Shown piece by piece: positions 1 through 20,808 of a stretch of 24,338 bases of DNA. Source of the stretch: Candidatus Sericytochromatia bacterium (GTDB lineage: Bacteria > Cyanobacteriota > Sericytochromatia > S15B-MN24 > UBA4093). Each line of letters opens with the position of its first letter. Positions within the stretch are counted from its first letter, which is position 1. The stretch covers positions 1 through 24,338 of the forward strand of contig JAKFCT010000039.1 of assembly GCA_036676495.1 (NCBI GenBank). The letters are read 5' to 3'. The notes beneath the pieces were generated by a model. It worked only from the letters and a program-made list of their open reading frames with translations, was not told the DNA's origin and made no database searches. The translations under genes were made by a program, and so were the position numbers.

Positions 1-124
1 CGATAACATCCAGATGGAGATCGAGCTGATCACGCCCGTCGCCGTCGAGGAAGGCATGCGCTTCGCCATCCGCGAAGGCGGCCGTACGGTCGGCGCCGGC
101 GTCGTCGCCAGCATCATGGAGTAA
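1..124 (+). CDS. tuf: Elongation factor Tu, C-terminal end (5'-truncated by the window)
   Basis: The frame from base 2 reads [56 protein letters not shown] is the EF-Tu C-terminal signature. TAA at 122-124. Confidence 0.97.
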
Positions 125-193
125 GCACGCGTCCATTAGCTACAGGCGCTTCGCCGTAGGCGTTCGCCTCACCCGCTGATAGACCCGAGCCTT

Positions 194-234
194 GCCCGTA
201 GCGGGACCTCTAGAGGTCCCGCTACGGGCTTTTT
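194..234 (+). terminator. Rho-independent terminator downstream of tuf
   Basis: Perfect 36-bp palindrome GCCCGTAGCGGGACCTCT/AGAGGTCCCGCTACGGGC (194-229) followed directly by TTTTT (230-234). Confidence 0.9.
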
Positions 235-294
235 ATGGTATCGTGGAGCACGGTTGCCCGGTCTGGAACCGTTTGGCCGAAAGGATCTCCTGGA

Positions 295-1398
295 ATGCGC
301 GCCCCCACCCCGCCGGATGCCGTCCGCTCGCGTCACGTCCTCCCCCTGGCCCTCTGCGCCGGGGTCATCGCGTTGGCGGGCTGCCCCAAGATGCCCCGCA
401 TCAGTCCGGACGATCCGCGACCGACTCCTTCCGCCTCGGCCACCCTCAAGCCCACTCCGAGCCCCTCCCCGTCCCCCGAGGCCACGCCCACTCCCAACGA
501 GGAGCCCACGCTGCGCACGGTCGCGTTGGGATCCCAGCCGCAGGCGATCGCCTTCGCCTCCATCGGGACCGCCTACGTGACCCTGGCGGCCGACATCGTC
601 TCCCTCACTGGCGAGTTGGGAGACAAGACCGCCCCGGCCACCGCCAGCCTCACCCACGAGTCGTTCACCGTCGGCGCTCCCGCCGGCATCCTGACCTTCG
701 GAGACACCACCTGGTTCGCCGATCCGGGTCGCGGGGAGATCCGACGGATCATGCATGGCACCCACTCCGTCATCGACTTCGCCTTCGGTGGCTCACCAGC
801 CCGCCTTGCGAAGGACCGCGACAACGTCTGGTTCACCGACAGCTCCGCACCCCGCGTCGGCATGCTCCCCGGCAACGCCATCAGCGGTATCCGCCCCGTC
901 TCGGCGAACCTCCCCGTCACCGCCAGCGACATCCTGGTCGATCGGGTCGGCCTCGCCTGGGCCCTCGGCAGCGACGGATCTCTCATGAAACTCTCCTTCC
1001 AGGCGGACGAAATCACCGTGACGCCCCTCGCAATGAAGGCCCTCAAGGAAGGCAAGGGGCTGGCCCAGGACGACGCCGGCAACCTCTGGATCACGGCGAT
1101 CTCGACGGAGGACCACAAGCAGCTCATGAAGCTCTCGGCGAACGGCACCTCCACCGAGGACCTCAACCTCGACGCCCCGGGCTTCGTCCCCGGCCGCTTC
1201 GCCATCCGGGGCAACTTCGCCTGGATCGCCGACGCGGCCCCCACCGGCACCACCATCAAGAAGGTCTCCCTGACCACCGGCGAGATCGCCGCCTCCTACG
1301 AGTTGGGCGGACGGGCCGCCGAGGTCGTCAAGGATGACGGCGGCGACCTCTGGCTGCCCATCGTCACCCACAACATCGTCGTCAAACTGGACTTCTAA
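295..1398 (+). CDS. Lipoprotein with Pro/Ser/Thr linker and Vgb/NHL-like beta-propeller
   Basis: Hydrophobic signal peptide ending in lipobox LAGC, a PTPSPSPSPEATPTP linker, and repeated propeller-blade motifs (TTWFAD, NVWFTD, GNLWIT, FAWIAD, GDLWLP). ATG 295 is preferred over 235, which abuts the terminator. Confidence 0.75.
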   Translation: MRAPTPPDAVRSRHVLPLALCAGVIALAGCPKMPRISPDDPRPTPSASATLKPTPSPSPSPEATPTPNEEPTLRTVALGSQPQAIAFASIGTAYVTLAADIVSLTGELGDKTAPATASLTHESFTVGAPAGILTFGDTTWFADPGRGEIRRIMHGTHSVIDFAFGGSPARLAKDRDNVWFTDSSAPRVGMLPGNAISGIRPVSANLPVTASDILVDRVGLAWALGSDGSLMKLSFQADEITVTPLAMKALKEGKGLAQDDAGNLWITAISTEDHKQLMKLSANGTSTEDLNLDAPGFVPGRFAIRGNFAWIADAAPTGTTIKKVSLTTGEIAASYELGGRAAEVVKDDGGDLWLPIVTHNIVVKLDF

Positions 1399-1401
1399 CG
1401 C

Positions 1402-1917
1402 ATGGCATCGCTGCTTTTCTACGTCCTGGCCGCCCTCTTGCTCGCATCCGGAGCCGCCATGGTCTGGGTAAAAAACCCCTGGCACGCTGCCTACGCCTTG
1501 GTGGCCGCCGCCGTGACCGGATCCGCGCTGATTGCCTGGCTACACGCCGAGTTCCTGGCCCTGGCGCTCGTGCTCGCCCTGGCCGGCGGCTTCGCACTCC
1601 TGCTCATGGTGGGGCTGCCCGTGCTGTCGCAGCGACATCCCCTCACCCAGAGCCGTCCGGACGAGGATCGCTCCTTCTGGGCCGGCATCGTCGCGGTGCT
1701 CTTCTTCGTGATCACCTACCGGGTGCTGGCCACGACCCCCTGGGGCGCGGAGGATTTCTCTCGGATGGCGGACGCTCCGCGCGGCCTCGAGGCCATCCGT
1801 ACCCTGGGCGAGACGCTGCGCCACGAATACGCCCTTGCCCTGATCGCGGGAGTCTTCCTGATCGGAGTGGCGCTCGCCGTCGCCTCTGCCCTCAGCCAGC
1901 CGGAGCCGGACGCATGA
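1402..1917 (+). CDS. nuoJ: NADH-quinone oxidoreductase subunit J (NuoJ/NdhG)-like, divergent
   Basis: About 5 hydrophobic segments; KNPWHAAYAL, LHAEFLA and IRTLGETLRHEY resemble NuoJ/NdhG motifs; lies directly before a nuoK-like gene. Confidence 0.75.
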   Translation: MASLLFYVLAALLLASGAAMVWVKNPWHAAYALVAAAVTGSALIAWLHAEFLALALVLALAGGFALLLMVGLPVLSQRHPLTQSRPDEDRSFWAGIVAVLFFVITYRVLATTPWGAEDFSRMADAPRGLEAIRTLGETLRHEYALALIAGVFLIGVALAVASALSQPEPDA

Positions 1918-2339
1918 TGACCTTCCCCTTGCAGGCCTTCAACCTGCCCATCCTCCAATCGCCGCTCGGCATGCCCCATTTCCTCACCGTGGGAGCGGCT
2001 CTCTTCGCCATCGGCCTCTTCGCCACCCTCGCGCACCGCAACCTCCTGCGCATCCTGATGGGCCTGGAGCTGATGCTGCTCGCCGCGATGCTCAACCTGG
2101 CGGCCTTCACCGCCTTCCTTCGCCCTGAGGGCCTTCACGGCCATGCCGTCACGCTCCTGCTGGTGCTCGTGGCGCTCGCGCAGCTGGCCATCGGCCTGGC
2201 CCTGGCAGCCCAGCTCATGCGCATGCCCGAATCCCCGGCCGGCCTCTCGCCCGAACCCCCGGCCGGCCTCTCGCCCGAAACCCCGCCGGTCGAAAACGAT
2301 CCCCTCAACGTTGAACGCTACGACGACTTGAAGTGGTAA
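1914..2339 (+). CDS. nuoK: NADH-quinone oxidoreductase subunit K (NuoK/NdhE)-like with Pro-rich insertion
   Basis: LFAIGLF..HRNLLRILMGLELML..NL matches NuoK, and the tail NVERYDDLKW resembles the NuoK/NdhE terminus. ATGA overlap with the nuoJ-like stop. Confidence 0.85.
   Translation: MMTFPLQAFNLPILQSPLGMPHFLTVGAALFAIGLFATLAHRNLLRILMGLELMLLAAMLNLAAFTAFLRPEGLHGHAVTLLLVLVALAQLAIGLALAAQLMRMPESPAGLSPEPPAGLSPETPPVENDPLNVERYDDLKW
2225..2289 (+). repeat. 24-bp in-frame tandem repeat (about 2.7 copies) in the nuoK-like gene
   Basis: GCCCGAA(T/C)CCCCGGCCGGCCTCTC at 2225-2248 and 2249-2272, plus a partial copy at 2273-2289; encodes PESPAGLS-PEPPAGLS-PETPP. Confidence 0.9.
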
Positions 2340-2345
2340 CTCCCC

Positions 2346-2636
2346 ATGGCAGATAAGCTTCCCCCCGAGACCTCGGCGGACTCGCGCCCGCCCCTCACCC
2401 TCCGCATCGGCCGGATCGTGGCCCAATTCGACCGCTTCGGCGTCGATGGGCTCGTCAATGCCTGCGGTTTCTTGATCTTCGCTGCCGCCGAGGGCCTGCG
2501 CTCCATGCATCACGGCAAGGTGCAGGTCTCCCTGCTCATCGCCATGGCCGTCCTCGTCGCCACGGTCATCGCGGTCATGCTCGGCTTGCCGAACCTCTTC
2601 ATGGGCGCACGTCTCGGCGGAGTGAGCGCATGCTAG
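2346..2636 (+). CDS. Stand-alone NuoL/NdhF C-terminal fragment (lateral amphipathic helix plus last TM helix)
   Basis: FDRFGVDGLVNACGFLIFAAAEGLRSMHHGKVQVSLLI matches the NuoL/NdhF C-terminal pattern D..vDG.VN...geglr..q.G.vq.Y. It occupies the nuoL position between nuoK and nuoM, is only 96 aa, and overlaps the nuoM-like start. Confidence 0.75.
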   Translation: MADKLPPETSADSRPPLTLRIGRIVAQFDRFGVDGLVNACGFLIFAAAEGLRSMHHGKVQVSLLIAMAVLVATVIAVMLGLPNLFMGARLGGVSAC

Positions 2637-4102
2637 ACACCCTCTTTCCCAACCTCTTCCTGCTGAGCGCCTCCGTAGCGCTGCCGATCCTCGCCTCCTT
2701 GATCGTCTGGGGCCTGGGCAAGACGCGGTTCCAGGCCGGTCGGATCGTGGGGATCGGCGCCGCGGCCCTGCCGCTGCTGATCTTGGCGTTCGCGGCCTTC
2801 CGCCTCTCCACGGAGATCGGGTTGCAACTGGGCGATCGCTTCGACTTCTGGCCGGATCTCGGCATCTCCGTCGCGCTGGCCATCGACGGCCTCAGCCTGC
2901 CGTTCGCCCTGCTGGCCGCCGCCCTCGGAGTGCTCGGAGTCTCGTCCGCACGCAGCCCCCATGAGCTCGCGCTCGCCTTGCTCGCACAGGCCACGTCCCT
3001 TTTGCTTTTCGTCTCCGAGGACCTCTTCATCTTTTTGGGGGCCTGGTGGGCCCTTCCCCTCTTGCTGTACGCCCTCATTAACGGCTGGGGGCGCGGCCGC
3101 GCGGAGTACGCGGCGACGAAGTTCCTGGCCATGCTCCTGACGGGCTCGGCCCTGCTCACCGTCAGCCTGCTCGCCATCTACCTGGTCGGCAACGGCAACG
3201 GCTCCATGGCCGCCCTCTGGATCACCAAGCCCGGCTTCCCCGTGGCCTTCCTCAACCACTGGGTGCTCGCCGGCATCCTGCTCTCGGCATGGGTCGCAGC
3301 CCCGCTCTTCCCCTTCCATACCTGGCTCGCGGACGTCTTCGACACCGCCCCTCCGTCGGCCCTGCCGCTCGTCGTGGGTGGAGTCCAGGCAGGAGCCGCC
3401 TATGCGTTCGTTCGCCTGGCCATGGGCCTCTTCCCCAGCTATATGCAGCCCTGGTTGCCCTGGATGGCAGCCCTGGGCGTCCTGACCGCCCTTTACGCCC
3501 TGATGGCCTCCTGGGGCCAGCGCTCGCTCCTGCGCGCGCTCGCCTTGGCGGGCGTCGCCGTCGCCGGCATCGCCCTCGCAGGCTTCTCCGCCGTCTCGGG
3601 TCCCGAAGTCTCCACCGCCGTCGGAAGCACCCTGAACCTGACGCTGGCCGCAGTCGCAGCCGGCGGTCTGCTGACCTGGCTTTCCGCGGAGCTGACCGTG
3701 CGCGCGGGCGCGACGCAGGATCTGCTCGCCCGCTTAGGCTTCCTCACTCCGAGAGGGGCCGCCTCCTGGCTGACGTCAGCCGGCTTGACCCTGGTGCTGC
3801 TCGTCGTGGCCATGGTCTTCATGGTCTCGCCCGTCGTGGAAGCGAACCGATTGGCACTGACGATCGGGATGGGACTCGCCCTCATGGGCCTCATCCTGAC
3901 GGCAGAGAACGCCCTGCGCCGGACCTTGCGCGCTCCTGCCACTCCCGCCCGCGTCGACGGCGTCGAGGACCTGACGGCCCGCGAGCTCGCCCTCGGCTGG
4001 GGAAGCCTGCTGCTCGCCGCCATCCCCATCCTCTGGTTGATCCTCGGGTCCCGGGCGATCGCCGTCTTCGCCTCCCAGCTGAGCCTGGGCTTCGTGCGCT
4101 AG
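2630..4102 (+). CDS. nuoM: NuoM/NdhD-like antiporter-fold membrane protein, degenerate
   Basis: IDGLSLPF, WGRGRAEYAATKF, PLFPFHTWLAD and EDLTARE are NuoM-family motifs; 490 aa, multi-TM. Confidence 0.8.
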   Translation: MLDTLFPNLFLLSASVALPILASLIVWGLGKTRFQAGRIVGIGAAALPLLILAFAAFRLSTEIGLQLGDRFDFWPDLGISVALAIDGLSLPFALLAAALGVLGVSSARSPHELALALLAQATSLLLFVSEDLFIFLGAWWALPLLLYALINGWGRGRAEYAATKFLAMLLTGSALLTVSLLAIYLVGNGNGSMAALWITKPGFPVAFLNHWVLAGILLSAWVAAPLFPFHTWLADVFDTAPPSALPLVVGGVQAGAAYAFVRLAMGLFPSYMQPWLPWMAALGVLTALYALMASWGQRSLLRALALAGVAVAGIALAGFSAVSGPEVSTAVGSTLNLTLAAVAAGGLLTWLSAELTVRAGATQDLLARLGFLTPRGAASWLTSAGLTLVLLVVAMVFMVSPVVEANRLALTIGMGLALMGLILTAENALRRTLRAPATPARVDGVEDLTARELALGWGSLLLAAIPILWLILGSRAIAVFASQLSLGFVR

Positions 4103-4111
4103 GAGGTCGCC

Positions 4112-5539
4112 TTGGATCACGCACTCATCTTGCTGCCGGAGTTCTTGCTCGTCCTCTTGAGCCTCGCCATCCTGGCCTTCGGGCGCTTTGCCCCCCGGAT
4201 CAGCCCTCCCCTGGCCACCTTTGGCCTGGTCGCCGCCTTGGGGATCCTCGTCGGCCAGGCGATGACCGGAGCGCTCGGCGGTCCCGCCTTCGCGGACGCC
4301 GTCCAGATCGGGCCCTTCGCCTGGCTCCTGCGCGGAGCCATCCTGCTCGCGGCCACCGCCTCCGCCGCCATGGCCTGGAGTGAACCCCCCACCCGGCCGG
4401 ACCTCTATTTCGGCCTCCTGACGGCCTCGGCGGTGGGTGCCATGGGCCTCGCCGGCGCGGCTGACCTCCTCGTCCTCTTCCTGAGCTACGCCCTCATGGG
4501 CCTCCCCCTCTTGGGCATGCTCGCCTTAGGGCGGGGGCCCGCGCGCTCGGAAGCAGCCATGAAGCTCTTCATGACCCAGGGCGTGGCTGCTGCCGTCCTG
4601 CTCTTTGCCTTCACATGGGCCTTCGGGCTGGGAGGCAGCACCTCCTTCGTGGCCCTGGGAGCCGCCCTGCAGACGCCCGATACCCTCTTGACGTTCGTCA
4701 TGCTGCTGATGCTCGGAGGCCTCTCCTTCACGGTGGCGGCCTTCCCCTTCCATGCCTGGCTTCCGGACGTCACCGAGGCGAGCCATGCCTCCACCGGAGC
4801 CTGGATCCTGGGCGGAGCCGGCCTTGCCGCCGTGGCGGGGCTGTTGCGGGTCCTGATGATGGTCTTTTCGACCAATACGGCGCTCTGGGCTCCGTACGTG
4901 ACGGGGCTCGCCGTCTTTAGCCTGCTCGCAGGCGGCCTGCTGGCGCTGGCTCAGGCGGATCTCCGGCGCATGCTCGGCTTCCTGGCCGTCGCGACGACCG
5001 GCTTCCTCATGCTGGCGCTCATGGCGGCTTCGCACGCCGCCTCCAGCCAGGAAGCGCTGAGCGCCCTCCTGATGACGGCCCTGACGACGGCGGTCGCCAC
5101 CATGGGGTTGTTTGCCGGCTTGGGCGCCACGCAGGCGCGCTCGCTGGCCGACCTGGGGGGCTTGCACCGGCGTTCACCCGCCCTGGCGCTCGCCATGACG
5201 GCCTGCGCGCTGGGACTGGCCGCCCTGCCCCTCGCCGGGGCCTTCTGGGCCCGCCTGACCCTCATCCGCGCGCTCTTGGTCTACGTCAGCCAATCGATGC
5301 AGTTCGGCATCATCGCCCTGGCCGTGCTCGCCATGGGGATGACCGTGCTCGTGGCCTACACGGCCCTGCGGATCCCCAAGGCCATCTACCTGGGCCCCTC
5401 GGATCCGGAGCGCGCCGATCTCGCCTTCCCGGCCGGTCATACGGCCGTCCTGATGGTTTGCGCGCTACTGAGCGTTGCCTTCTTCGTGGCTCCGGCGCCC
5501 CTTTGGGCCCTCGTGAGCTTCGCCACTCGTGGCTTTTAG
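4112..5539 (+). CDS. nuoN: NuoN/NdhB-like antiporter-fold membrane protein, degenerate
   Basis: LLPEFLL, RSEAAMKLF, AFPFHAWLPDV, QADLRRML and DLGGLHRRSPALA are NuoN motifs; TTG start with AGGAGG at 4101-4106. Confidence 0.8.
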   Translation: MDHALILLPEFLLVLLSLAILAFGRFAPRISPPLATFGLVAALGILVGQAMTGALGGPAFADAVQIGPFAWLLRGAILLAATASAAMAWSEPPTRPDLYFGLLTASAVGAMGLAGAADLLVLFLSYALMGLPLLGMLALGRGPARSEAAMKLFMTQGVAAAVLLFAFTWAFGLGGSTSFVALGAALQTPDTLLTFVMLLMLGGLSFTVAAFPFHAWLPDVTEASHASTGAWILGGAGLAAVAGLLRVLMMVFSTNTALWAPYVTGLAVFSLLAGGLLALAQADLRRMLGFLAVATTGFLMLALMAASHAASSQEALSALLMTALTTAVATMGLFAGLGATQARSLADLGGLHRRSPALALAMTACALGLAALPLAGAFWARLTLIRALLVYVSQSMQFGIIALAVLAMGMTVLVAYTALRIPKAIYLGPSDPERADLAFPAGHTAVLMVCALLSVAFFVAPAPLWALVSFATRGF

Positions 5540-5555
5540 TATTGGGAGTACAGAG

Positions 5556-5846
5556 ATGATCACCAAGGAAACCGTGCAGCACGTCGCAAAGCTTGCTCGC
5601 CTGGAGCTCGCCCCGTACGAGGAGAGCCAGCTCACCAACGAGCTCGGCGCCATCCTCGGCTACGTCGAGCAGCTCGCTCAGGTGGACGTGTCCGGAGTCG
5701 CCCCCACGGCGCAAGCCATCCCCGTCTCGAACGTGGTCCGTGAGGACCAGTTGCGCCCCAGCCTGACGCGCGACGAAGTGCTTCAGAACGCCCCGGCCCC
5801 CGAGCAGGGCATGTTCCGGGTGCCCCGGATCATCGGGGAAGCGTGA
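5556..5846 (+). CDS. gatC: Asp/Glu-tRNA amidotransferase subunit C
   Basis: MITKETVQHVAKLARLEL...VREDQ...NAP...FRVPRI; GGGAG RBS upstream of ATG 5556. Confidence 0.95.
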   Translation: MITKETVQHVAKLARLELAPYEESQLTNELGAILGYVEQLAQVDVSGVAPTAQAIPVSNVVREDQLRPSLTRDEVLQNAPAPEQGMFRVPRIIGEA

Positions 5847-7099
5847 CGGCCCCCGTCGTCGTGGTGGGGGCGGGCGCTGCGGGCCTGATGGCCGCCATCG
5901 CCGCAGCCCGCGCCGGAGCCCCCACCATGCTCCTCGAAAAAACCAAGCGCTTCGGCTACAAGATCCTGATCTCGGGCCACGGCCGCTGCAACCTCACCAA
6001 CGCCGAGCGCGACCTCAAACAGCTCATCACCAACTACCCGGGCGGAGGCAAGTTCCTCTACGGCGTCTTCAGCCAGTTCGACAACTGGGACTTCATCCGC
6101 TTCGTCGAAGGGCTCGGGCTTCCCACCAAGACCGACGCGCGAGGCCGGGTCTACCCCGAAACCGACCGCAGCTTGGACGTGGTGGAAGCTTTCCAGCGCG
6201 AGCTCGATCGCCTGGGCATCCAGCTTCGCCTGGAGGCACCGGGCGCCAAGATCATCACCGAAGCGGGCCGAGCCGTCGGCATCGAGCTGGCCTCGGGCGA
6301 GGTCGTGAAGGCCGGGGCGCTCGTCATCACCGTCGGAGGCCAGTCGTTTCCCAACACGGGCTCGACGGGGGACGGCTACCAGATGGCCCAGGAGATCGGG
6401 CATACGCTGGTGGATCCCTTTCCGTCGCTGGTCCCCTTGCGCTCTCCGGGACTGGGTGAGCTGGCGGGGCTGTCGCTGCGGGACGTCGAGGTCACGGCGG
6501 TGGTCGACGGCAAGCCGGCGGCGAAGCGGCGGGCGGACATGATGTTCGCGCACTTCGGCCTGACGGGGCCGGCGGTGCTGCATCTCAGCCGGACGGCGTC
6601 CCTGGCCCTGGCCCAGGGCAAGACCGTGGAGCTTTGGCTGGACGTGGCGCCGGATCGCTCGCGCGAGGAGCTGGACGCCGACCTGAAAGCGGCCTGGGAT
6701 CGGACTCCGCGCACGCACCTGGCCAATGCGCTCAAGGACTGGCTTCCCGAACGGCTCGTGCCGACCTTCCTCGCGAAGGCGGGGGTTGCGGGCGATCGCC
6801 CCGTCTCGGAGATTCCCAAGCGGGAGCGCGCCAAGCTCGTCGAACGCCTGAAGCGCTGGGCCTTCCCGATCCCCTCGGTGCTTTCCAAGGAAGTCGCCGA
6901 GGTGACGGCAGGCGGGCTCAACCTCAAGGAGGTGGACCCCAAGACCATGGCCTCCAAGCGGGTCGAGGGACTGTTCTGGGCCGGCGAGGTGCTGGACGTG
7001 GACGGTTACATCGGAGGGTACAACTTCCAATCCGCATGGTCCACGGGCTGGGTGGCCGGCCAATCCGCAGCGCGTTCGCTGGGTTACGCGCCCGATTAG
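5843..7099 (+). CDS. HI0933/BaiN/YhiN-family FAD-dependent oxidoreductase
   Basis: VVGAGAAGLMAA, KILISGHGRCNLTN, GRVYP, TGSTGDGY, AEVTAGG, GEVLDVDGYIGGYNFQSAWSTG; GTGA overlap with gatC. Confidence 0.93.
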   Translation: MTAPVVVVGAGAAGLMAAIAAARAGAPTMLLEKTKRFGYKILISGHGRCNLTNAERDLKQLITNYPGGGKFLYGVFSQFDNWDFIRFVEGLGLPTKTDARGRVYPETDRSLDVVEAFQRELDRLGIQLRLEAPGAKIITEAGRAVGIELASGEVVKAGALVITVGGQSFPNTGSTGDGYQMAQEIGHTLVDPFPSLVPLRSPGLGELAGLSLRDVEVTAVVDGKPAAKRRADMMFAHFGLTGPAVLHLSRTASLALAQGKTVELWLDVAPDRSREELDADLKAAWDRTPRTHLANALKDWLPERLVPTFLAKAGVAGDRPVSEIPKRERAKLVERLKRWAFPIPSVLSKEVAEVTAGGLNLKEVDPKTMASKRVEGLFWAGEVLDVDGYIGGYNFQSAWSTGWVAGQSAARSLGYAPD

Positions 7100-7578
7100 T
7101 CGAACCGGCCCCGGTTGGTCTGACGGCCGTCCGGCGTGGGGGTGAACTTGTTGGGGTAGGGCTTCGGGGGCAAGGGCGAGACGCTGAGCTCGCGCTGTCC
7201 GCCCAGTCGGAACTCGGGGCGCTGGTAGTCGAGCGTATGATGAGGCAGGAACGTGGCGTAGAGCTGGATCTCCCGGCCGTCGTCGAGCGGATCGGGGGGC
7301 ATGGGCGGCAGGTTGCGGATCGCATGGGAATCGAGCTGGCGCGCCAGGACGCGGCCCTCGCCGTCGAGGACGGAGACGAGGCCGAGCGGGAGGGGGATCT
7401 CCATGCCGTCGGTCAGCTGGACCACGAGGTAACGGACATCCCGGGTCTCGTTCTCGATCAGGAGGTCGATGACCGTTCCGACCAGGCGCTCGTCGGAGCC
7501 GAGGACGGGCCAGCCCAGCAGGTCGGGCTGGGACGGGGCGATCGCCATGGGAAGCCGGGACAGCTTCGCGATGCTCAT
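7096..7578 (-). CDS. PRC-barrel domain protein
   Basis: PDLLGWPVLGSDERLVGTVIDLLIENETRDVRYLVV is a typical PRC-barrel pattern; ATG 7578 has AGGAGG (7585-7590, minus strand) upstream. Confidence 0.8.
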   Translation of the reverse strand: MSIAKLSRLPMAIAPSQPDLLGWPVLGSDERLVGTVIDLLIENETRDVRYLVVQLTDGMEIPLPLGLVSVLDGEGRVLARQLDSHAIRNLPPMPPDPLDDGREIQLYATFLPHHTLDYQRPEFRLGGQRELSVSPLPPKPYPNKFTPTPDGRQTNRGRFD

Positions 7579-7612
7579 CGGGTACCTCCTTGCCTTGGCG
7601 CGCGCAACGGCG

Positions 7613-8997: not shown

Positions 8998-10329
<1,332 letters not shown>

Positions 10330-10332
10330 CCT

Positions 10333-12120
10333 GTGGACGGACGTAAGAAAACCAAAATCGTCGCAACGCTCGGCCCCTCGACCAGCACGGACGAGATGGT
10401 CGCCAAGCTGATCGAGGCCGGAGTCGACGTCTTCCGCCTCAACTTCTCGCACGGCTCTCATGAGACCCACCGCGAGAACATCGAGCGCGTGCGGCGCATC
10501 TCCAAGGACATGGGACGCCCGATCGCCCTCCTGCAGGACATCCAGGGGCCCAAGATCCGCGTCGGCGAGATCAACGGCGGCCAGGCCATCCTGGTCCCCG
10601 GCCAGACCTTCATGCTCACCACCACGCCGCTCGAAGGCAACGAGCAGATGGCCTCGGTCACCTACCCCCGCCTCACCGAGGACGTCCGCGAAGGCATGAA
10701 GATCCTCCTGGACGACGGCCTCCTCGAGCTCGTCGTCGTCGAGGTCAAGCCCGAGATGCTGGTGACCCGCGTGGTCGTCGGTGGAGCCCTCAAGCCCCGC
10801 AAGGGCGTGAACTTCCCCGGCTCCATGCTCAAGATCTCCATCATCACCGATAAGGACAAGGCCGACCTCAAGTTCGGAGCCGAGATGGGCATCGACCTCG
10901 TCGCCGCCTCCTTCGTCCAGCAAGCCTCGGACGTCCTGGAGGTCAAGGACTTCCTCGCCCAGCTCGGCAAGAAGACCCCGATCATCGCCAAGATCGAACG
11001 CCGCGAAGCCGTTCAGAACCTCCGCGAGATCATCCAGGTCGCCGACGGCGCCATGGTCGCCCGTGGCGACCTCGGCGTCGAGATCCCGGTCGAGGACGTG
11101 CCCATCGTCCAGAAGCAGATCATCCGGGGCTGCAACCTGGAAGGCAAGCCCGTCATCACCGCCACCCAGATGCTGGACTCGATGATCCGCGCTCCCCGGC
11201 CCACCCGGGCCGAGGCCTCGGACGTCGCCAATGCCATCCTGGACGGCACCGACGCGATCATGCTCTCCAACGAGACGGCCGCGGGCGCCTACCCCCTCGA
11301 ATCGGTCGAGACCATGGCGCGCATCGCCATGCAGGTCGAGCGCTCGATGATGCCCAAGGTCCGGCCCGAACTGGAAGAAGGCTACATCCGTCCCGTGCAG
11401 GACTCGGTCGCTCACGCGGCCACCCGCATGGTCCAGGAGCTGGGCGCCTCGGCCATCGTCACGGCCACCTACTCGGGCAGCTCCGCCCGCATGGTCGCCA
11501 AGTACCGTCCCGGCTGCGCCATCATCGCCGCCACCCCCTTCGAGGACGTCTGCCGCCAGATGAACCTCATCTGGGGGGTCTACCCGATCCGGATCACCCA
11601 GACCGAGACCATCGACGACCTCTTCCAGCAAGCCGTGGCCGAAGCCACCTCCGCCGGCCTGGTCGAGGACGGCGATCAGGTGATCATGGTCGCCGGCATC
11701 CCCATGGGCGTGCCCGGCACCACCAACATGGTCACCGTCGAGGTGGTCTCCAGCATCATCGCCCGGGGCATGGGCCTCGGCCAACGGCCCATCTGCGGCG
11801 TCGCCCGGGTGGTCTTCGACCCCACCCTCGCCTGCGAGGCCGTGCACGCCGGAGACATCCTGGTCACCCAGAACACGGACGCGTCCTGGAACCCGGCCAT
11901 CGAGAAGGCCTCCGCCATCGTGGTCCGCAGCGGCGGCCTCACCTCGCATGCGGCCATCGTGGGGCTCGAGCTCAACAAGCCGGTGATCCTCGGCGTCGAG
12001 GAGCTCGAGAAGATCCGCGACGGAGCGACCATCACGGTCGACCCCCTGCGCGGGCTGATCTTCAGCGGCGAGGCCAAGATCGGCTGTGAGCCGGGACCCA
12101 CCCCCTGGGATCGCTCCTAG
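10333..12120 (+). CDS. pyk: Pyruvate kinase with C-terminal PEP-utilising (phosphohistidine swivel) domain
   Basis: [54 protein letters not shown]; C-terminal [14 protein letters not shown] start. Confidence 0.98.
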
Positions 12121-12181: not shown

Positions 12182-12240
12182 TCCATGGGTCAGGGCGCGG
12201 GATCGCAGGCCCAGGCGTCCGGGCGCACTCCCTCCGGGTG

Positions 12241-12858
12241 CTAAGGGGCGCTCCCGCCGCGCCGGGACGCCAGGTCGCGCAGGGCCTCATGGTAGTCCTC
12301 CGGGCGATTGAGGTTCCGGAAGGAGGCAAGCTCGGGGTCGTAGCGGCGCACCACCCCGACGGGGATCTCCCGCACGCGGATCGCCGCGAGGAAGCGCTGC
12401 ATGCTCAGGTCGTCCGCGGCGCCCGGCGCGCGGAGCATGGGCAGGATCCGGCGGGAGTAGACGGCCAGCAAGGGCTCTCGGCCCCGGGCGCTGCACGGCA
12501 CGACGGCATCCGCGTCCAAGGTCTGCTCGGCCAGGAAGCGCAGCAAGTTCGGGTTCAAGAACGGCATGTCGCAGGCGGTCAGCAGGACCTGAGGCTCCTC
12601 GACGGCTTCCAACCCGCTCGCCAGGGCTTCCAGGGGGCCTCGGCCCGGATGGCGATCGGGGATTCGGGGGGCCTCCGGCAGCGGAAAATCCGCATGCCCG
12701 ACCACCAGGACGTTCGGGAAGATCTCGGAGAGCATGGCGTGGACGCGGACGGCCATCGGGACCCCTCCGAAGGGCAGTCGAGCCTTGTCCTGGCCCATTC
12801 GGCGGCTCTTTCCACCCGTGAGCAAGAGGGCCGCGCGGGTCTGAAGGGGGTCGGGCAT
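12241..12858 (-). CDS. mobA: Molybdenum cofactor guanylyltransferase
   Basis: LTGGKSRRMGQDKA, GPL, ACDMPF, EPLLAVY, FRNLNRPED; GGAGG RBS; divergent from the molybdoenzyme operon. Confidence 0.92.
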   Translation of the reverse strand: MPDPLQTRAALLLTGGKSRRMGQDKARLPFGGVPMAVRVHAMLSEIFPNVLVVGHADFPLPEAPRIPDRHPGRGPLEALASGLEAVEEPQVLLTACDMPFLNPNLLRFLAEQTLDADAVVPCSARGREPLLAVYSRRILPMLRAPGAADDLSMQRFLAAIRVREIPVGVVRRYDPELASFRNLNRPEDYHEALRDLASRRGGSAP

Positions 12859-12993
12859 GGGGCCTCCGGAGGTCTTGGGGACGCTTCCTTCTTATCCTAG
12901 CGGGACTTCAGAGGACGAGCGGAAAAGCACTTGAATTCCATGATGAATTTATGTTAAGCCACATGAGGGAAGCTGCCACGATCGGAGGGCGCC

Positions 12994-14118
12994 ATGAGAC
13001 CCGACACGGGCCCCGGCATGAGACCTGGCATGAGACCCGGCCGGAAGGTCGCTCCGGACGATCCGGCGGACCGCGCGGCGGCGAAGGCCCGCGTGCCGGC
13101 CGCCGCCCTGGCGCTCTTGTCGGCCGTCGTGGTGGTGCTGCTCGCCTACCTCGGCTCGCGGGGGTTCCGGGACTTCGACGTGGCGCTGATCGGGTACTTC
13201 GTGGGCCTGGTCTTCGCGACGGCGGCGATCGTCTACCGCTACAGCCTCTGGATCACGCGCCCGCCAACCTGGCGGTATTTCCGCGCCGGCTGGGCCAACT
13301 TCTTCTCCTGGAAGAACTTCACGCGCTACACCTTGCTCTTGCCGGTGGCGCTTTGGCACGACCTGATCGCCCAGACCTTCATCCGCAAGCGCAGCCTCAG
13401 GCGCTGGCTGATGCACCAGGCGATCTTCTGGGGAGTGATCCTGAGCTTGCTCGTCACCATTCCGCTGACCATGGGCTGGATCCGCTTCACGTTGATCCCG
13501 CCGGATACCTACGTGGCCTGGTTCTTCGGCCTGCCGATCATGCGCTTTCCCATCGAGGCGGGGACGGGGTTCGCCATCTTCCATGCCCTGGATTGGTCGG
13601 CGCTATTGCTGATCGTGGGGCTGGTCATCGCCTTCTGGGGGCGGCTCAACGACGTGGGCAGCCTCACGACGCAGCGCTTCAGCTTCGACCTGATGCCCCT
13701 GGTGCTGCTGGCGGCGATCGCCGTGAGTGGGCTCTTGCTCACGGCCTCGGTCTGGTGGTGGGAAGGGCGCTATTACTGGTTCATCTCGCTGGCGCACCAG
13801 GTCTTCGTGGTGGGGTGGCTGCTCTCGCTGCCCTTCGGGAAGTTCTTCCACATCGTCCAGCGGCCGGCCAGCATCGGCGTCAAGCTCTACCAGACGGTCA
13901 ACCAGGATCTCGAGCAAGGAACCGGCGTCTGCCGGGGCTGTGGGACGGCCTTGCCGTCTCAGCAGTTCGTCAGCGACCTCAAGGAGACCCTCGTGGATCT
14001 GCGCCAGAACTACGACCTCGGCCATGAGCTCGGCTGGCTCCAGGACTACTGTCCGACCTGCAAGCGGAAGCTTCGCGGCAAGGCCTACTACCAGCTTCTC
14101 GGAAAGAGGTTCCTCTGA
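12994..14118 (+). CDS. Multi-TM NarI/DsrM-like membrane protein (putative cytochrome b) with C-terminal CxxC...CxxC domain
   Basis: About 7 TM segments; His residues in MHQAIFWG, IFHALDW, LAHQVFV and LPFGKFFH (compare the NarI-family PFs(K/R)l.H motif); C-terminal CRGC...CPTC. Start is ambiguous (ATG 12994, 13018 or 13030). Confidence 0.7.
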   Translation: MRPDTGPGMRPGMRPGRKVAPDDPADRAAAKARVPAAALALLSAVVVVLLAYLGSRGFRDFDVALIGYFVGLVFATAAIVYRYSLWITRPPTWRYFRAGWANFFSWKNFTRYTLLLPVALWHDLIAQTFIRKRSLRRWLMHQAIFWGVILSLLVTIPLTMGWIRFTLIPPDTYVAWFFGLPIMRFPIEAGTGFAIFHALDWSALLLIVGLVIAFWGRLNDVGSLTTQRFSFDLMPLVLLAAIAVSGLLLTASVWWWEGRYYWFISLAHQVFVVGWLLSLPFGKFFHIVQRPASIGVKLYQTVNQDLEQGTGVCRGCGTALPSQQFVSDLKETLVDLRQNYDLGHELGWLQDYCPTCKRKLRGKAYYQLLGKRFL

Positions 14119-16418
14119 TGAGCGTCAACAAGGATTTCTTCCAGCCCGATCGGCAGTTCAACTACGATTTCCAGTCGGTCGGCCGGCCCGAGGTCGGCTG
14201 GCAAGAGGCCTCGCATCTTCCCGAGGCCCTGGTGCCGACCCATTGCTCCTTTTGCGGGGTTCAATGCGGGATGTACCTGCGGGTCAGCGACGGTCGCGTC
14301 ACCGGAGTGGAGCCCCGCGACTACCCGCATAACCAGGGCAAGCTCTGTCCGAAGGGAGTGGTCGCCTACCAGCAGGTCGATCATCCGGAAAGGCTGACCA
14401 CGCCCCTGATCCGGCGGGGGGGCAAATCCGGAAAGCTGCAGCCGGCGACCTGGGAGGAGGCGTACGCGGCGATCGCCAGCCGCTGGCAGGAAATCCAGGC
14501 CCGCCACGGCAAGGATGCGGTCGCCGTCTACTCGGGATCCTCCATGACCAACGAGAAATGCTACCTCATGGGGAAGTTCGCCCGGGTGGCCCTGCAGACC
14601 CGGCACATCGACTACAACGGGCGGCTCTGCATGTCCTCGGCGGCCTACGGGTACTCCAAGGCCTTCGGGCTGGATCGCTGCCCCTTGCCGATGACCGACG
14701 TCCCCTTGGCCAAGTGCATCGTCGTGGTGGGCTCGAACGTCGCGGAGTGCTTCCCGATCCTCATGCACTGGATCTGGCAGGCCCGCGACCGCGGCGCGCG
14801 GCTGATCGTCCTCGATCCTCGCGAGACGCCCATCGCGCGCACGGCGGACCTCTGGCTCCCGGTCAAGCCCGGCACGGACGTGGCCGTGCTCAACGCCATG
14901 CTGCGCCAGGTCATCCAGGACGGCCGGGTCGACGAGGCCTATATCCAAGCGCGAACCAACGGCTGGGAAGCGACCAAGGCCATGGTCGAATCCTTCACCC
15001 CCGAGGAGGCCGAGCGACTGAGCGGCGTTCCCGCCGAGCGGATCCTGGCGGCGGCCCGCCTCTACGGGGAGGCCGATCCATCGCTCATCATGCATGCGCG
15101 CGGCATCGAGCACAGCACCCACGGGGTCAATAACGTGCTGGCATGCATCAACCTGGCCCTCGCGCGCGGGCAGGTCGGCAAGCCCGGCGGGGGCTCCATG
15201 ATGATCACCGGCCAGGGCAACGGCCAGGGCGGGCGGGAGGTCGGCCAGAAGGCCAACCAATTGCCCGGCTACCGGCATATCACCTTGCCGGAGGATCGGG
15301 AGTACGTGGCCAAGGTCTGGGGGATTCCCGTCGATTCCTTGCCCTGGGAAGGGGCGGCGGCGACCGAGATGGTCCGCTTGATGGCAGAGGGCACGATCAA
15401 GTCCTGCCTCATCGCCTGCTCCAACCTCATGGTCTCGCTTCCCGACAACGCGGTCGTCCAGCGTGCCTTGCAGCAGCTCGATCCCCTGGTGGTGGTCGAC
15501 TTCTTCATGTCGGAGACCGCCGAACTGGCGGACATCGTCCTGCCGGGCTCGGTCTGGTGCGAGGACGAGGGGACCACGACCAACCTGGAAGGCCGGGTCG
15601 TCAAGATCAACCGGGCGGCGGATCCTCCCGGCATCGCCAAGCGGGACTGGGAGATCCTCTGCGACCTGGCCCGCCACCTGGGGCGGCCCCACGGCTTCAC
15701 GTTCCGCTCGGTCCGCGAGATCTGGGACGAGCTGCGCCTGGCGTCCAAGGGAGGGGTTTCCGACTATTACGGCATCACATGGGAGAAGATCGATGCGCAG
15801 GCCGGGGTCTTCTGGCCCTGTCCCTCGGAGGATCACCCGGGCACCCCGCGGCTCTTCACGGAGCGCTTCGCGCATCCGGATGGGCGGGCGAAGTTCTTCG
15901 CCATCCCGTTCGCCCCGGCCGCCGAAGAGCCCGGCGGAGACTATCCCTTCCGGCTCACGACAGGGCGGGTCGTCTACCAGTACCTGAGCGGCACCCAGAC
16001 CCGGCGACTCGGCTTCCTCAACAGCCAGGCTCCCGAGCCCTGGGTCGAAATTCACCCCCAGGCCGCGGATCCCCTCGGCATCCAAACCGACGACTTGGTG
16101 CGGGTGCGCACCCCGCGCGGCGCGATGGAGCTCAAGGCCCTGGTCACGCCGACCATTCGGCCCGATACCCTCTTCATCCCCTTTCACTACGGCCATGCGC
16201 ACGCCGTCAACCAGCTCACCAACCCCGCCGTCGAGCCGAACGTCAAGATCCCGGAGTACAAGGCGTGCGCAGCGGCCATCGAGCGGCTCGAGGCCCCACC
16301 CCGAGCGCTGGATCGCAGCCCCAAGCAGAACCTGACGGCTCAGCAGGCGCCTGAGATGTTTCCTTACGCCTCGGGAGCGGGCGAAGCGGGCGAGGCGACG
16401 GAAGGGAAGACCTACTAG
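14118..16418 (+). CDS. Mo-bisPGD oxidoreductase, NasA/NarB/NapA-type nitrate reductase catalytic subunit
   Basis: [4Fe-4S] motif CSFCGVQC...LCPKG; Mo-ligand region NGRLCMSSA; TGQGNGQGGRE; EGTTTNLEGR; LTTGR...QTRR; IPEYKACA. No Tat signal. TGATG coupling with the upstream gene. Confidence 0.88.
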   Translation: MSVNKDFFQPDRQFNYDFQSVGRPEVGWQEASHLPEALVPTHCSFCGVQCGMYLRVSDGRVTGVEPRDYPHNQGKLCPKGVVAYQQVDHPERLTTPLIRRGGKSGKLQPATWEEAYAAIASRWQEIQARHGKDAVAVYSGSSMTNEKCYLMGKFARVALQTRHIDYNGRLCMSSAAYGYSKAFGLDRCPLPMTDVPLAKCIVVVGSNVAECFPILMHWIWQARDRGARLIVLDPRETPIARTADLWLPVKPGTDVAVLNAMLRQVIQDGRVDEAYIQARTNGWEATKAMVESFTPEEAERLSGVPAERILAAARLYGEADPSLIMHARGIEHSTHGVNNVLACINLALARGQVGKPGGGSMMITGQGNGQGGREVGQKANQLPGYRHITLPEDREYVAKVWGIPVDSLPWEGAAATEMVRLMAEGTIKSCLIACSNLMVSLPDNAVVQRALQQLDPLVVVDFFMSETAELADIVLPGSVWCEDEGTTTNLEGRVVKINRAADPPGIAKRDWEILCDLARHLGRPHGFTFRSVREIWDELRLASKGGVSDYYGITWEKIDAQAGVFWPCPSEDHPGTPRLFTERFAHPDGRAKFFAIPFAPAAEEPGGDYPFRLTTGRVVYQYLSGTQTRRLGFLNSQAPEPWVEIHPQAADPLGIQTDDLVRVRTPRGAMELKALVTPTIRPDTLFIPFHYGHAHAVNQLTNPAVEPNVKIPEYKACAAAIERLEAPPRALDRSPKQNLTAQQAPEMFPYASGAGEAGEATEGKTY

Positions 16419-16460
16419 CTCGCTTTCTCGACGTCCCGAGGCCTCGGAGAGGAGGAGCGG

Positions 16461-17081
16461 ATGGCCATCGATACGCTGTTCATGGATCCGTCGCGCTGCA
16501 TCGGCTGCCGCGCCTGCGAGGCCGCCTGCCGGGAATGCGACTCCCACAAGGGCGAGAGCATGATCATGGTCGACTTCGTCGACCGCGCCCAGAACGTGGC
16601 CACTCAGCCGACGGTCTGCATGCACTGCGAGGATCCGGTGGCTCCTTGCGCGCAGGTCTGCCCGGTCATGGCCATCCTGATCACCGGCGAGGGGGTGGTC
16701 CAGCAGGCGGAGCCCTCCCGGTGCATCGCATGCCGAAACTGCGTCTACGCCTGTCCCTTCGGGGTCCCGAAGATGGACCTGGAGGCGCGCCTGATGAAGA
16801 AGTGCAACCTCTGCTACGACCGGACCGTCCAGGACCTCAAGCCCTGGTGCGCGCAGGCCTGTCCGACCCAGGCCATCTGGTACGGCACCTACGAGGAGTT
16901 CGTCAACCAGCGCAACGGGCGCGCCGTGAACCAGACCGTCTTCGGGACTCAAGCGGTCCGAACCCGGGTCTACCACGTGCTTCCCGAGGAGGTCGACACG
17001 CTCGACCTCGTGGCGCTGCTCGAAGGCGCCGCCAGCGAGCTCGGCCGCCCCTCGGCGGAAAAGGAGGCCTGGGTCCTATGA
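16461..17081 (+). CDS. 4x[4Fe-4S] electron-transfer subunit (DmsB/NrfC/FdnH family)
   Basis: CIGCRACEAAC, CMHCEDPVAPCAQVCP, CIACRNCVYACP, KCNLC...WCAQACP; strong GGAGGAG RBS. Confidence 0.92.
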   Translation: MAIDTLFMDPSRCIGCRACEAACRECDSHKGESMIMVDFVDRAQNVATQPTVCMHCEDPVAPCAQVCPVMAILITGEGVVQQAEPSRCIACRNCVYACPFGVPKMDLEARLMKKCNLCYDRTVQDLKPWCAQACPTQAIWYGTYEEFVNQRNGRAVNQTVFGTQAVRTRVYHVLPEEVDTLDLVALLEGAASELGRPSAEKEAWVL

Positions 17082-17641
17082 ACGAGCCGACGACGCCAGG
17101 TCTGTCCCCGCAGCCGGGCCCCTTCGGCCCCCGGGAGGCGGCTCCCGGACCGGATCAGCCGCCGTTCGAAAAATGGCGTACGACCTTCCCGTTCCACTGG
17201 GACGCCGACGAATTGGTTTCCCGCCGCGAGCTGCTTTACTTCACCGTCTTCGCCTCCGCCACCATGTTCAGCACGACCTTCCTGCTCGCGATCCTCGGCT
17301 GGCTGAGGCAGCCCGTACATGGCAGCATTCAGCCGGTCGTCAGGATCGGCGACGTCCCCGAAGGCGGGGCGCATTACTTCGATTACCCGGGCCCGGACCA
17401 GTTGGCCGTGCTCTTGCACCTTCCCGGCGGTCGCTTCGTCGCCTACAGCCTGCGCTGCACCCACCTCTCCTGCGCCGTCTACTTCAACGCGGAGCGCCAA
17501 GAGCTGATTTGCCCCTGCCATCACGGGCTCTTCGAACTCGCGTCGGGAGAGCCCGTGGCGGGTCCGCCGCGCAGGAGGCTGGAGCAGATAGCCTTGCGCC
17601 AGGAGGGCGACGTGCTCTACGCCGTCGCGATCGCCCCATGA
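17078..17641 (+). CDS. Rieske [2Fe-2S] protein with N-terminal twin-arginine-like motif and TM anchor
   Basis: CTHLSC and CPCHHG Rieske boxes; SRRELL followed by a hydrophobic helix; ATGA overlap with the ferredoxin stop. Confidence 0.9.
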   Translation: MNEPTTPGLSPQPGPFGPREAAPGPDQPPFEKWRTTFPFHWDADELVSRRELLYFTVFASATMFSTTFLLAILGWLRQPVHGSIQPVVRIGDVPEGGAHYFDYPGPDQLAVLLHLPGGRFVAYSLRCTHLSCAVYFNAERQELICPCHHGLFELASGEPVAGPPRRRLEQIALRQEGDVLYAVAIAP

Positions 17642-17940
17642 GGCGCCGTCCGTCGGGCTCCCCGCATGGGCCGCCCTTGCCCGGCCAGCAGGCCCTGGTC
17701 ACGGCCGGCATGGTCATGGGCTTCGTGCTGCTGGGCGCGCAACTCTGGCTGCTCACCGTGGCGCTGGATCTCTACCTGGCGGGACGCGGCAGCAACATCT
17801 GGCTCTTGGCGCTGGTTTCGGGGCTCATCACAGCCGGCGGCCTCGCGATCCTCTACCTCTTGCATCGCCGGCCCCGCGTGCAACGCCTGACCACCGATGA
17901 ATCCGGGCGAACCGTCCGCCGCTTCGAGCACGACGTCTGA
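17638..17940 (+). CDS. Small two-TM membrane protein (QLWLL motif; DUF6755-like from recall)
   Basis: ATGA overlap with the Rieske stop; two hydrophobic helices around AQLWLLTVALDLYLAG. Confidence 0.7.
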   Translation: MRRRPSGSPHGPPLPGQQALVTAGMVMGFVLLGAQLWLLTVALDLYLAGRGSNIWLLALVSGLITAGGLAILYLLHRRPRVQRLTTDESGRTVRRFEHDV

Positions 17941-19213: not shown

Positions 19214-19244
19214 GATAGTGGCGACGCGACGCGTCACCACTATC
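19214..19244. promoter_or_regulatory. Near-perfect inverted repeat upstream of narK
   Basis: GATAGTGGCGACGCG-A-CGCGTCACCACTATC: 15-bp arms with one mismatch, which is a G-U pair in the minus-strand RNA. Confidence 0.5.
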
Positions 19245-19307
19245 ATTCGGAACGGTGGGGAGAGCAACGGCCGAAACGCCGTCCCCGGTTGTGGAGGATG
19301 TCGGGAT

Positions 19308-20579: not shown

Positions 20580-20808
20580 CTGCTTCTCCGTTTCGTTCGG
20601 GCACTCCCTCCATCGTACGGGTCGCAGGTCATAACCGCCTCCGCGTTCTGTCATGGAACGGTCACGGTTTGGTAGTCTTTTCGCCGCCCACCCAGCCTGC
20701 CGCGCCCCTCCCTCGAAGCAGCCGTCAGCATGCGGGTTTTCGCCTTTCCGTGATCCGGTCGCGCCGCGGCCGCGGCTCCATGGACGGAGGGGCCGGAGTC
20801 GCAGGGGG

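Follow-up and report, generated by a model that had tools for sequence, protein, structure and literature searches.

A nuoJKLMN-type gene cassette largely stripped of its charged axis in a Sericytochromatia genome

Gene content and fold of the cassette

The window examined here is a DNA stretch of 24,338 nucleotides (nt) from a Candidatus Sericytochromatia bacterium (contig JAKFCT010000039.1 of assembly GCA_036676495.1, which is contig C39 of genome G000 in our collection), with a GC content of ~61 to 70% in 1-kb windows. At 1402 to 5539 it harbors five uninterrupted plus-strand open reading frames (ORFs), ~68% GC, in the gene order J-K-L-M-N of the complex I membrane arm. This cassette has lost most of the residues of the proton-transfer axis, and its proteins are kept under purifying selection. 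The products are J' (NuoJ/NdhG-like, 171 amino acids (aa), 1402–1917), K' (NuoK/NdhE-like, 141 aa, 1914–2339), miniL (a stand-alone homolog of the NuoL/NdhF C terminus, 96 aa, 2346–2636), M' (NuoM/NdhD-like with the full fold, 490 aa, 2630–4102), and N' (NuoN/NdhB-like, 475 aa, 4112–5539). The genes for J' and K' overlap by 4 nt, those for K' and miniL are 6 nt apart, miniL and M' overlap by 7 nt, and a gap of 9 nt precedes N', which starts with TTG and has an AGGAGG Shine-Dalgarno sequence ahead of it. An earlier note, written from the letters alone, had described the five ORFs as unbroken and tightly packed in nuoJKLMN order and as unflanked by nuoA, nuoH, nuoB, nuoC, nuoD, or nuoI; the ORF map bears out the former, and none of the six genes was found in the window. 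The cassette is hence encoded without a quinone-reducing module of its own.

The four longer proteins are assigned to complex I families by Pfam. J' matches PF00499 (Oxidored_q3; E 4e-14, 53 bits against a gathering cut-off of 33.2), K' matches PF00420 (Oxidored_q2; E 3e-14, 52.9 bits against 26.1), and both M' (E 1.6e-14, 54.2 bits) and N' (E 1.2e-35, 123.6 bits) match PF00361 (Proton_antipo_M; cut-off 21.5). The top-ranked NCBIfam models are NuoJ, NuoK, NuoM, and NuoN, with every score far under the curated cut-off: 47 of 154 bits for J, 66 of 128 for K, 28 of 676 for L, 138 of 263.8 for M (NDH_I_M), and 166 of 523 and 162 of 332.6 (NDH_I_N) for N. The proteins belong to the membrane arm at the level of Pfam families and fall outside it at the level of NCBIfam orthologs. 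The nearest solved chains are cyanobacterial and chloroplast NdhD, NdhB, NdhE, and NdhG together with Escherichia coli NuoN, to which N' aligns over nearly its full length (residues 8–471 to residues 12–481 of 3rko_N, HMMER). An AlphaFold2 model of M', built from a 41-row alignment, reaches a mean predicted local distance difference test score (pLDDT) of 85.7 and a predicted TM-score (pTM) of 0.89, and in Foldseek it comes closest to NdhD/NuoM chains (TM-scores of 0.79 to 0.84). The model keeps the break of transmembrane helix 7 (TM7) at residues 224 to 230, and the expected TM12 is one continuous helix (374–404) beside a low-confidence segment.

MiniL has no Pfam match. It matches NdhF models at positions ~550 to 606 of 613 only (E 1e-6) and aligns to the FDRYVVDGxVN...GKxQ region and the last transmembrane helix of full-length L from related genomes. 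By alignment, miniL is the putative last ~80 residues of NuoL/NdhF, comprising the end of the lateral amphipathic helix and TM16; of a full-length NuoL with its antiporter body, 96 aa are left at the locus. In complex I this lateral helix extends along the membrane arm, with TM16 as its proximal anchor, and truncation of NuoL leads to a fragile complex (PMC3274701). Stand-alone relatives of miniL form a set of 15 proteins of 80 to 96 aa, miniL included, within the searched length range of 52 to 168 aa, outside of which longer fused forms would fall. A predicted complex of N' with miniL scored 0.01 against a mark of 0.32, which, with no controls in the run, speaks neither for nor against binding.

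Loss of the charged axis

In complex I, GluTM5, LysTM7, LysTM8, and Lys/GluTM12 of the antiporter-like subunits, E36 and E72 of NuoK, and TM3 of NuoJ constitute the central proton-transfer axis (PMC10212512). Compared with E. coli NuoN, whose residues are numbered here as counted in the 3rko_N alignment, N' carries A127 in place of E133, T207 in place of K217, G237 in place of K247, and R381 in place of K395, the last of which retains a positive charge at the TM12 site. In M', aligned to cyanobacterial and plant NdhD and to intact relatives, the TM5 Glu site is W140 (AWWA), the TM7 Lys site is A223 (VAAPLFPFHTWL), and the TM8 Lys site is A254 (GGVQAGAAY); the TM12 Glu has no counterpart, V399 being aligned there. 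K' keeps the TM2 Glu as E52 (GLELM) and has Q90 (ALAQLA) for the TM3 Glu, and in J' the TM3 Tyr is replaced with L60. In sum, none of the four axis residues is present in M' and none is unchanged in N', one of two remains in K', and the Tyr of J' is gone, so that the axis as a whole is not conserved. Positions in NuoM, NuoK, and NuoJ were matched to residue numbers that we take to be those of the E. coli proteins.

The HMMER and MAFFT alignments contain every substitution that the earlier note had named in the four subunits, and its description of a parallel loss with reading frames and structural motifs preserved stands. No shifted or compensating Glu or Lys was found in these alignments. Five intact relatives have 19 NuoM columns in which a charged residue or His is invariant. 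Eight of these persist in M' of this genus, all within structural motifs (DGLS, DL, YAxxK, PFH, PD, an Arg, and two positions of the C-terminal loop), and the four axis sites and two His are among those lost. In N', 6 of 12 such columns persist. As a candidate substitute for the TM12 Glu, E405 of M' ('VVEAN') was rejected, as it is unconserved among 12 cluster representatives of M' and sits next to a loop in the modeled structure.

The TM5 Glu, TM7 Lys, and TM8 Lys are absent from all 12 of these representatives. Across 268 NuoM-family sequences, 230 carry Glu-Lys-Lys at TM5, TM7, and TM8, and only 16 sequences, all of this clade, lack all three residues or all those that align. Ten NuoM-like representatives outside the clade (P0166, P0188, P0190, P0197, P0234, P0243, P0247, P0252, P0276, and P0283) are without two of the three, as exemplified by P0247 (FWMVSI, FAVSIP) and P0283 (FWGVML, FAITVP). 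Because these ten are unrelated to the clade, partial charge loss may extend beyond this family into other lineages.

Distribution and graded degeneration

The family of this bacterium is represented by 10 species genomes in the collection, 7 of which contain the five-part cassette: all three of this genus (g1), both of g2, both of g4, and none of the three of g3. In g1 the cassette proteins share 56 to 74% amino-acid identity and the loci have the same neighbors. In g2, the locus is split over two contigs, one with M, N, and gatC and the other with J, K, miniL, and an adenosine-deaminase-like gene; the break falls between miniL and M' in both assemblies. In g4, J' and K' are fused into one 222-aa ORF and M' is shortened to 384 to 426 aa. 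The flavoprotein neighborhood of one g3 genome (G004) is rearranged, with NadA-like and phosphatase-like ORFs (recognized by eye) and neither gatC nor the cassette.

A metagenome scan returned 77 loci, of which three are close relatives with 69% identity in M'. These three contigs carry the full lipoprotein-J-K-miniL-M-N-gatC-flavoprotein arrangement and the same substitutions, and the frames of K', M', and N', which were the three checked, contain no stops. Orthologs with the same losses are present in two further genomes of the genus and three metagenome contigs. In a collection of 5.8 billion proteins, M' has 11 other cluster representatives at 56 to 71% identity, and the next match is an ordinary NuoM at 32%. 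A profile search of 1.84 billion representatives places five clade members on top (343–710 bits), after which the scores fall to 241 bits. A scan of genome contigs with the generic pattern PFH[AS]WLPD retrieved only distant NuoN proteins at 23 to 36% identity (Pseudomonas, Methanolobus, Chloroflexota, and others). An artifact or contamination is rejected, because the arrangement recurs in three g1 genomes, in four genomes of two other genera, and on the three metagenome contigs.

The axis residues are lost to different degrees in the three genera. The M' sites are replaced in all seven genomes (TM5 with W/G in g1 and Q in g2 and g4; TM7 with A/S, Q, and Q; TM8 with A, T, and P), as is the TM3 Glu of K', which is Gln throughout. 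The TM8 Lys of N' is missing from all seven. The TM5 Glu, TM7 Lys, and TM12 Lys of N' are kept in g2 and g4 and replaced only in g1 (TM5 with A/N/L, TM7 with T/T/M, and TM12 with R). K' retains the TM2 Glu in G000, G002, and G008; the position holds Ser in G001, Gln in G005, and Val in g2. Charge loss is graded in these alignments, with M' predicted to be dead in all three genera and N' in this genus only.

The residues that survive raise the question of residual transport. The cassette could be a repurposed secondary transporter or channel that moves an ion or small solute by a noncanonical path, for example through N', in analogy to Mrp or to the partial nuo operons of marine actinomycetes. 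Such a role would draw on the homology of J, K, L, M, and N to the Mrp core (PMC10212512, PMC4938563), on the three of four axis residues in N' of g2 and g4 and the Arg at TM12 in N' here, and on the K' Glu, which is kept as E52 in two of the three genomes of the genus and at the TM2 position in one of the two g4 genomes; partial nuoA-H-J-K-L-M-N operons have additionally been tied to salt tolerance (PMC6676996). We regard a transporter as unlikely, however. In this genus, three of the four axis sites of N' and all four of M' are nonionizable, N' of all seven cassettes has no TM8 Lys to join the two half-channels, the L body proposed as the proton exit (PMC10212512) is deleted, and the genome already has what appears from ORF lengths to be an Mrp-type MrpA/MrpD pair on another contig (C47).

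K' contains a Pro-rich, partly repeated insert (PAGLSPE PPAGLSPE) at residues ~107 to 128 (2232–2298), ahead of the conserved C-terminal D-L-K-W. The insert is specific to this genus and absent from g2, g4, the intact operons of related families, and canonical NuoK.

Purifying selection

Maximum likelihood codon models (GY+F3X4) of the three g1 genomes yield ratios of nonsynonymous (dN) to synonymous (dS) divergence, omega, far below 1: 0.117 for J', 0.100 for K', 0.146 for miniL, 0.086 for M', and 0.083 for N'. An omega of 1 is rejected for each gene (likelihood ratio statistics of 147, 95, 62, 433, and 456, respectively). For comparison, omega is 0.064 to 0.086 for the canonical J–N genes of the genome (in which codon bias lowers dS), 0.066 for gatC, 0.048 for the flavoprotein gene, and 0.162 for the lipoprotein gene. 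The four g2 and g4 genomes give 0.071 for M' and 0.083 for N' (likelihood ratio statistics of 417 and 573). Ratios by the Nei-Gojobori method (NG86) are 0.22 to 0.49 for the cassette and 0.53 to 0.76 for the upstream lipoprotein. Conservation in M' is patterned: the β-hairpin, the TM7 region (PFHxW), and the C-terminal helix are near-invariant, and residues 300 to 440 are variable. The cassette is under purifying selection at the protein level that is relaxed relative to a working enzyme, as illustrated by the low omega, the patterned conservation, and a faster nonsynonymous divergence.

These values bear on the reading of the cassette as a functionless remnant in slow decay, in which the ORFs would be kept open by polarity on the essential gatC and by the cost of misfolded membrane proteins. 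The junctions are tight from the lipoprotein gene to gatC, with no terminator-like site of a stem longer than seven pairs between 230 and 7600. Residues are lost progressively, M' is truncated in g4, the whole cassette is lost in g3, and the cassette outpaces the canonical set in evolution; the nuoJKLMN set of Gilliamella has been read in this way (PMC11325843). Slow decay is nevertheless very unlikely. Polarity alone would preserve frames, not amino acids, and omega (0.07–0.15) is near that of gatC and the canonical genes and under that of the lipoprotein gene. Conservation is patterned rather than even, and no frameshift is seen at ~30% identity in seven genomes and three contigs (the contigs being checked for stops in K', M', and N').

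Origin from an 11-subunit operon

The best matches of N' in other families of the order and class (genomes G016, G018, and G027) lie in full A-B-C-D-H-I-J-K-L-M-N clusters that have no E, F, or G and whose axis residues are intact. In G016, gatC follows N, and in G027, tuf precedes A. The window has the 3' end of tuf at 1 to 123 and gatC after N', as around the intact operons. By synteny, the cassette is therefore the remnant of an 11-subunit nuoABCDHIJKLMN operon once flanked by tuf and gatC. The nuoA–I genes and the body of L have been deleted from the cassette locus. An origin as a duplicate of the canonical nuo set is rejected, as the cassette is syntenic with this separate 11-subunit operon.

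Two of the intact operons have a long ORF between nuoM and nuoN, both on the minus strand: one of 1061 aa with a signal peptide-like start in G018 (L027, 8155–11340) and one of 365 aa in G016 (L025, 5992–7089). They may be inserted genes or spurious ORFs of high-GC DNA.

A separate canonical set is present in the genome of the window, which is 92% complete. A nuoH-I-J-K-L-M-N operon lies on contig C80, together with the genome's single NuoD and single NuoH. Seven PF00361 genes are found, namely three in this operon, two in the Mrp-like locus on C47, and two in the cassette. All seven of the cassette-bearing genomes examined have the canonical operon.

The coexistence of the two sets suggests a further alternative, in which J', K', N', M', and miniL dock on the canonical NuoA/NuoH foot and peripheral arm. 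The resulting enzyme would oxidize NADH and reduce quinone with little or no proton pumping and would serve as a valve for redox balance when the proton-motive force is high. The canonical operon in each cassette-bearing genome, the lack of a NuoD or NuoH in the cassette, and the retention under selection of J' and K', which contact NuoA and NuoH in complex I, are consistent with it, and in Streptomyces, the nuo and nuo2 products have been suggested to form a hybrid (PMC9239103). J' and K' derive, however, from a distant operon: the best tblastn segment between K' and canonical K has 42% identity, and J' has no tblastn match to canonical J. Their fit to canonical A and H is therefore doubtful. 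The J' TM3 Tyr and K' TM3 Glu, which lie at the E-channel junction, are changed as well, and genus g3 manages without the cassette. Docking on the canonical foot is thus not a likely role. The wider proposal that a charge-less arm plugs onto canonical NuoA/H and the peripheral arm, or onto another partner, to form a switchable non-pumping NADH:quinone oxidoreductase is rather unlikely.

A predicted proton-inert role

The cassette is predicted, at slightly better than even confidence, to be a proton-inert structural subcomplex that is kept for a non-pumping role. Because selection keeps the proteins, their likeliest role would be structural and non-pumping, and because the parts that hold an arm together (folds, hairpins, the L strap and anchor, J, and K) survive and the parts that move protons are erased, that role is probably proton-inert. 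The ancestor of the three genera would have lost nuoA, B, C, D, H, and I, which encode the quinone module and the membrane foot, along with the antiporter body of nuoL, where protons are proposed to leave (PMC10212512); J, K, the strap-and-anchor piece of L, M, and N would have remained. M' would have lost all four axis residues ahead of the split of the genera and K' its TM3 Glu. N' would have lost the linking TM8 Lys early and, later, in this genus, the TM5 Glu and TM7 Lys. The five proteins, if expressed, would fold and assemble as a J'K'N'M' membrane subcomplex that is clamped by the L fragment and presumably no longer carries protons along the canonical hydrophilic axis. Its present role would be that of a proton-inert membrane scaffold.

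Several observations weigh against this reading. The cassette evolves ~2 to 3 times faster than the canonical set at nonsynonymous sites (dN of 0.17–0.35 versus 0.05–0.13), and identity between genera is 27 to 35% for the cassette versus 54 to 60% for canonical M and N; constraint is therefore relaxed. The omega values come from dS near saturation (0.5–1.1, NG86), and the F3X4 model may bias omega at 68% G+C. The shortening of M' and the fusion of J' and K' in g4 look like continuing erosion. The three g3 genomes, 81 to 99% complete, show canonical genes only, and the cassette is therefore dispensable. No RNA run is listed among the sequencing runs that hold the window DNA (three rows hold all or part of it, one of which may be the source sample), and the assembly of the five proteins is a prediction from homology. 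R381 of N', E52 of K', and the Glu, Lys, and Lys of N' in g2 and g4 additionally leave room for residual ion chemistry.

Comparison with known systems

The cassette shares protein families, gene order, and fold with the complex I membrane arm and is syntenic with the intact operons of related families. It differs from that arm by the absence of A, B, C, D, H, and I, by an L cut to ~80 residues, and by the replacement of the axis Glu and Lys. The earlier note had gone too far in knowing of no described system like this, since membrane-subunit-only nuo clusters are an already known kind: sets from Gilliamella, Streptomyces (nuo2), and marine actinomycetes are in print.

An orphan nuoJKLMN cluster is found in all 95 Gilliamella genomes and is described as a remnant (PMC11325843). 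As in the cassette, the Gilliamella/Orbaceae (bee-gut Gammaproteobacteria) set consists of five nuo genes only, is conserved across genomes, and was left after loss of the catalytic subunits (PMC11325843). By that description, Gilliamella has L as a whole gene and no other complex I is reported there, whereas the cassette has a stub of L, a stripped axis, and a coexisting canonical operon. The cassette hence belongs to the descriptive class of orphan nuoJKLMN clusters by its J-K-L-M-N-only content, if the L fragment is counted, and departs from it by the presence of another complex I. Streptomyces nuo2, which lacks CDEFG and L, is of unclear function (PMC9239103), and the nuoA-hyp-H-J-K-L-M-N operons of marine actinomycetes have an unclear or salt-related role, for which ion homeostasis was proposed (PMC6676996). 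Like the cassette, these are extra, incomplete membrane-subunit clusters alongside a canonical nuo operon (PMC9239103, PMC6676996); unlike it, they keep nuoA and nuoH and belong to another lineage with other gene content.

The Mrp (Mnh/Pha) antiporters consist of homologs of NuoL, M, N, K, and part of J and have no redox module (PMC10212512, PMC4938563). Mrp keeps the Lys/Glu axis that the cassette has lost. Mrp models also fit less well than those of complex I, with E values of 2.8e-21 versus 1.3e-48 (NuoN) for N' and 1.7e-9 versus 3.1e-40 (NuoM) for M'. No MrpE-, MrpF-, or MrpG-like ORFs are found in the cassette, and the flanking ORFs are identified as other genes. With neither the MrpA–G set nor the Lys/Glu axis, the cassette is not an Mrp-type antiporter. 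Axis loss goes unmentioned in the available parts of the descriptions of the Gilliamella and actinomycete sets. The literature, in the text available, describes no cluster with a stripped axis, an anchor-only L, and measured purifying selection, although supplementary tables may hold residue states; a search for a charge-less or non-pumping antiporter-like arm likewise found no such system in the material it covered.

A buried Lys/Glu axis is what normally defines an antiporter-like subunit. In this case, the fold outlives the axis under purifying selection, and with it the β-hairpin, the broken TM7, and the L-derived strap, in a cassette that persists in several related soil bacteria under natural selection. 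The structural constraints on the complex I membrane arm are separable from the catalytic ones. Within one bacterial order, the stages run from intact through M dead to M and N dead, a stepwise natural series that, if the reading of a charge-less arm is true, amounts to a natural mutagenesis of how an antiporter-like fold and its inter-subunit clamps persist without the axis. Ion pumping should not be assumed for orphan nuoJKLMN clusters, and genes annotated as NuoM or NuoN may be transport-dead. If a function as a scaffold or an uncoupled arm is found, one of the oldest bioenergetic modules would have been put to a new use.

Neighboring genes and other observations

The 3'-terminal 40 codons of tuf open the window (1–123, plus strand) and were recognized by eye from the translated, EF-Tu-like C terminus. 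This tuf end marks the ancestral left border of the locus; an EF-Tu gene also lies 5' of the intact operon in G027 (L028) and of the cassette in G008 (L024). The assemblies of all three g1 genomes and the three metagenome contigs end within or just past tuf, probably because duplicated tuf copies were collapsed. A terminator-like hairpin with a 16-bp stem and a following T run, identified as a consensus match only, is located 3' of tuf (194–229, plus strand). A scan of 1 to 7600 for sigma-70 promoters gave no match, the consensus being uninformative for this organism.

A lipoprotein gene (295–1398, plus strand; start at 295 inferred, longest ORF from 235) adjoins the cassette with its stop 4 nt ahead of J'. 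Its product has a signal peptide with a Cys lipobox, a Pro/Thr-rich linker, and a six-bladed NHL/'Pizza'-like β-propeller that matches the designed Pizza6 proteins (E 5e-16). The gene is fast-evolving (44–47% identity inside the genus) and is found next to the cassette in six of six loci of the type of this genus but not in g2 or g4, where the adenosine-deaminase-like gene, named by eye without a family search, occupies its position. On the other side lies gatC (5556–5846, plus strand; ATG start at 5556 inferred, longest ORF from 5529), which borders every cassette, and also the intact operon of G016, on the right. It is followed by a syntenic gene for a flavoprotein of the HI0933/aminoacetone-oxidase family (5843–7099, plus strand).

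Further downstream, the region 14118 to 17940 contains genes for a 766-aa molybdopterin oxidoreductase that includes an Fe4S4 domain and for a 206-aa 4Fe-4S dicluster protein, followed by a 255-aa ORF without a Pfam match. The set, which is unrelated to the cassette, resembles a three-subunit enzyme of the dimethyl sulfoxide reductase family (Psr/Nrf-type). ORFs of 220, 374, and 485 aa in 12238–14118 and 19218–20675 match no Pfam family at E <= 1e-5 and, given the high-GC DNA, may not all be genes. Directly after enolase (9040–10329) lies a pyruvate kinase (10333–12120) with a C-terminal phosphoenolpyruvate-utilizing mobile domain.

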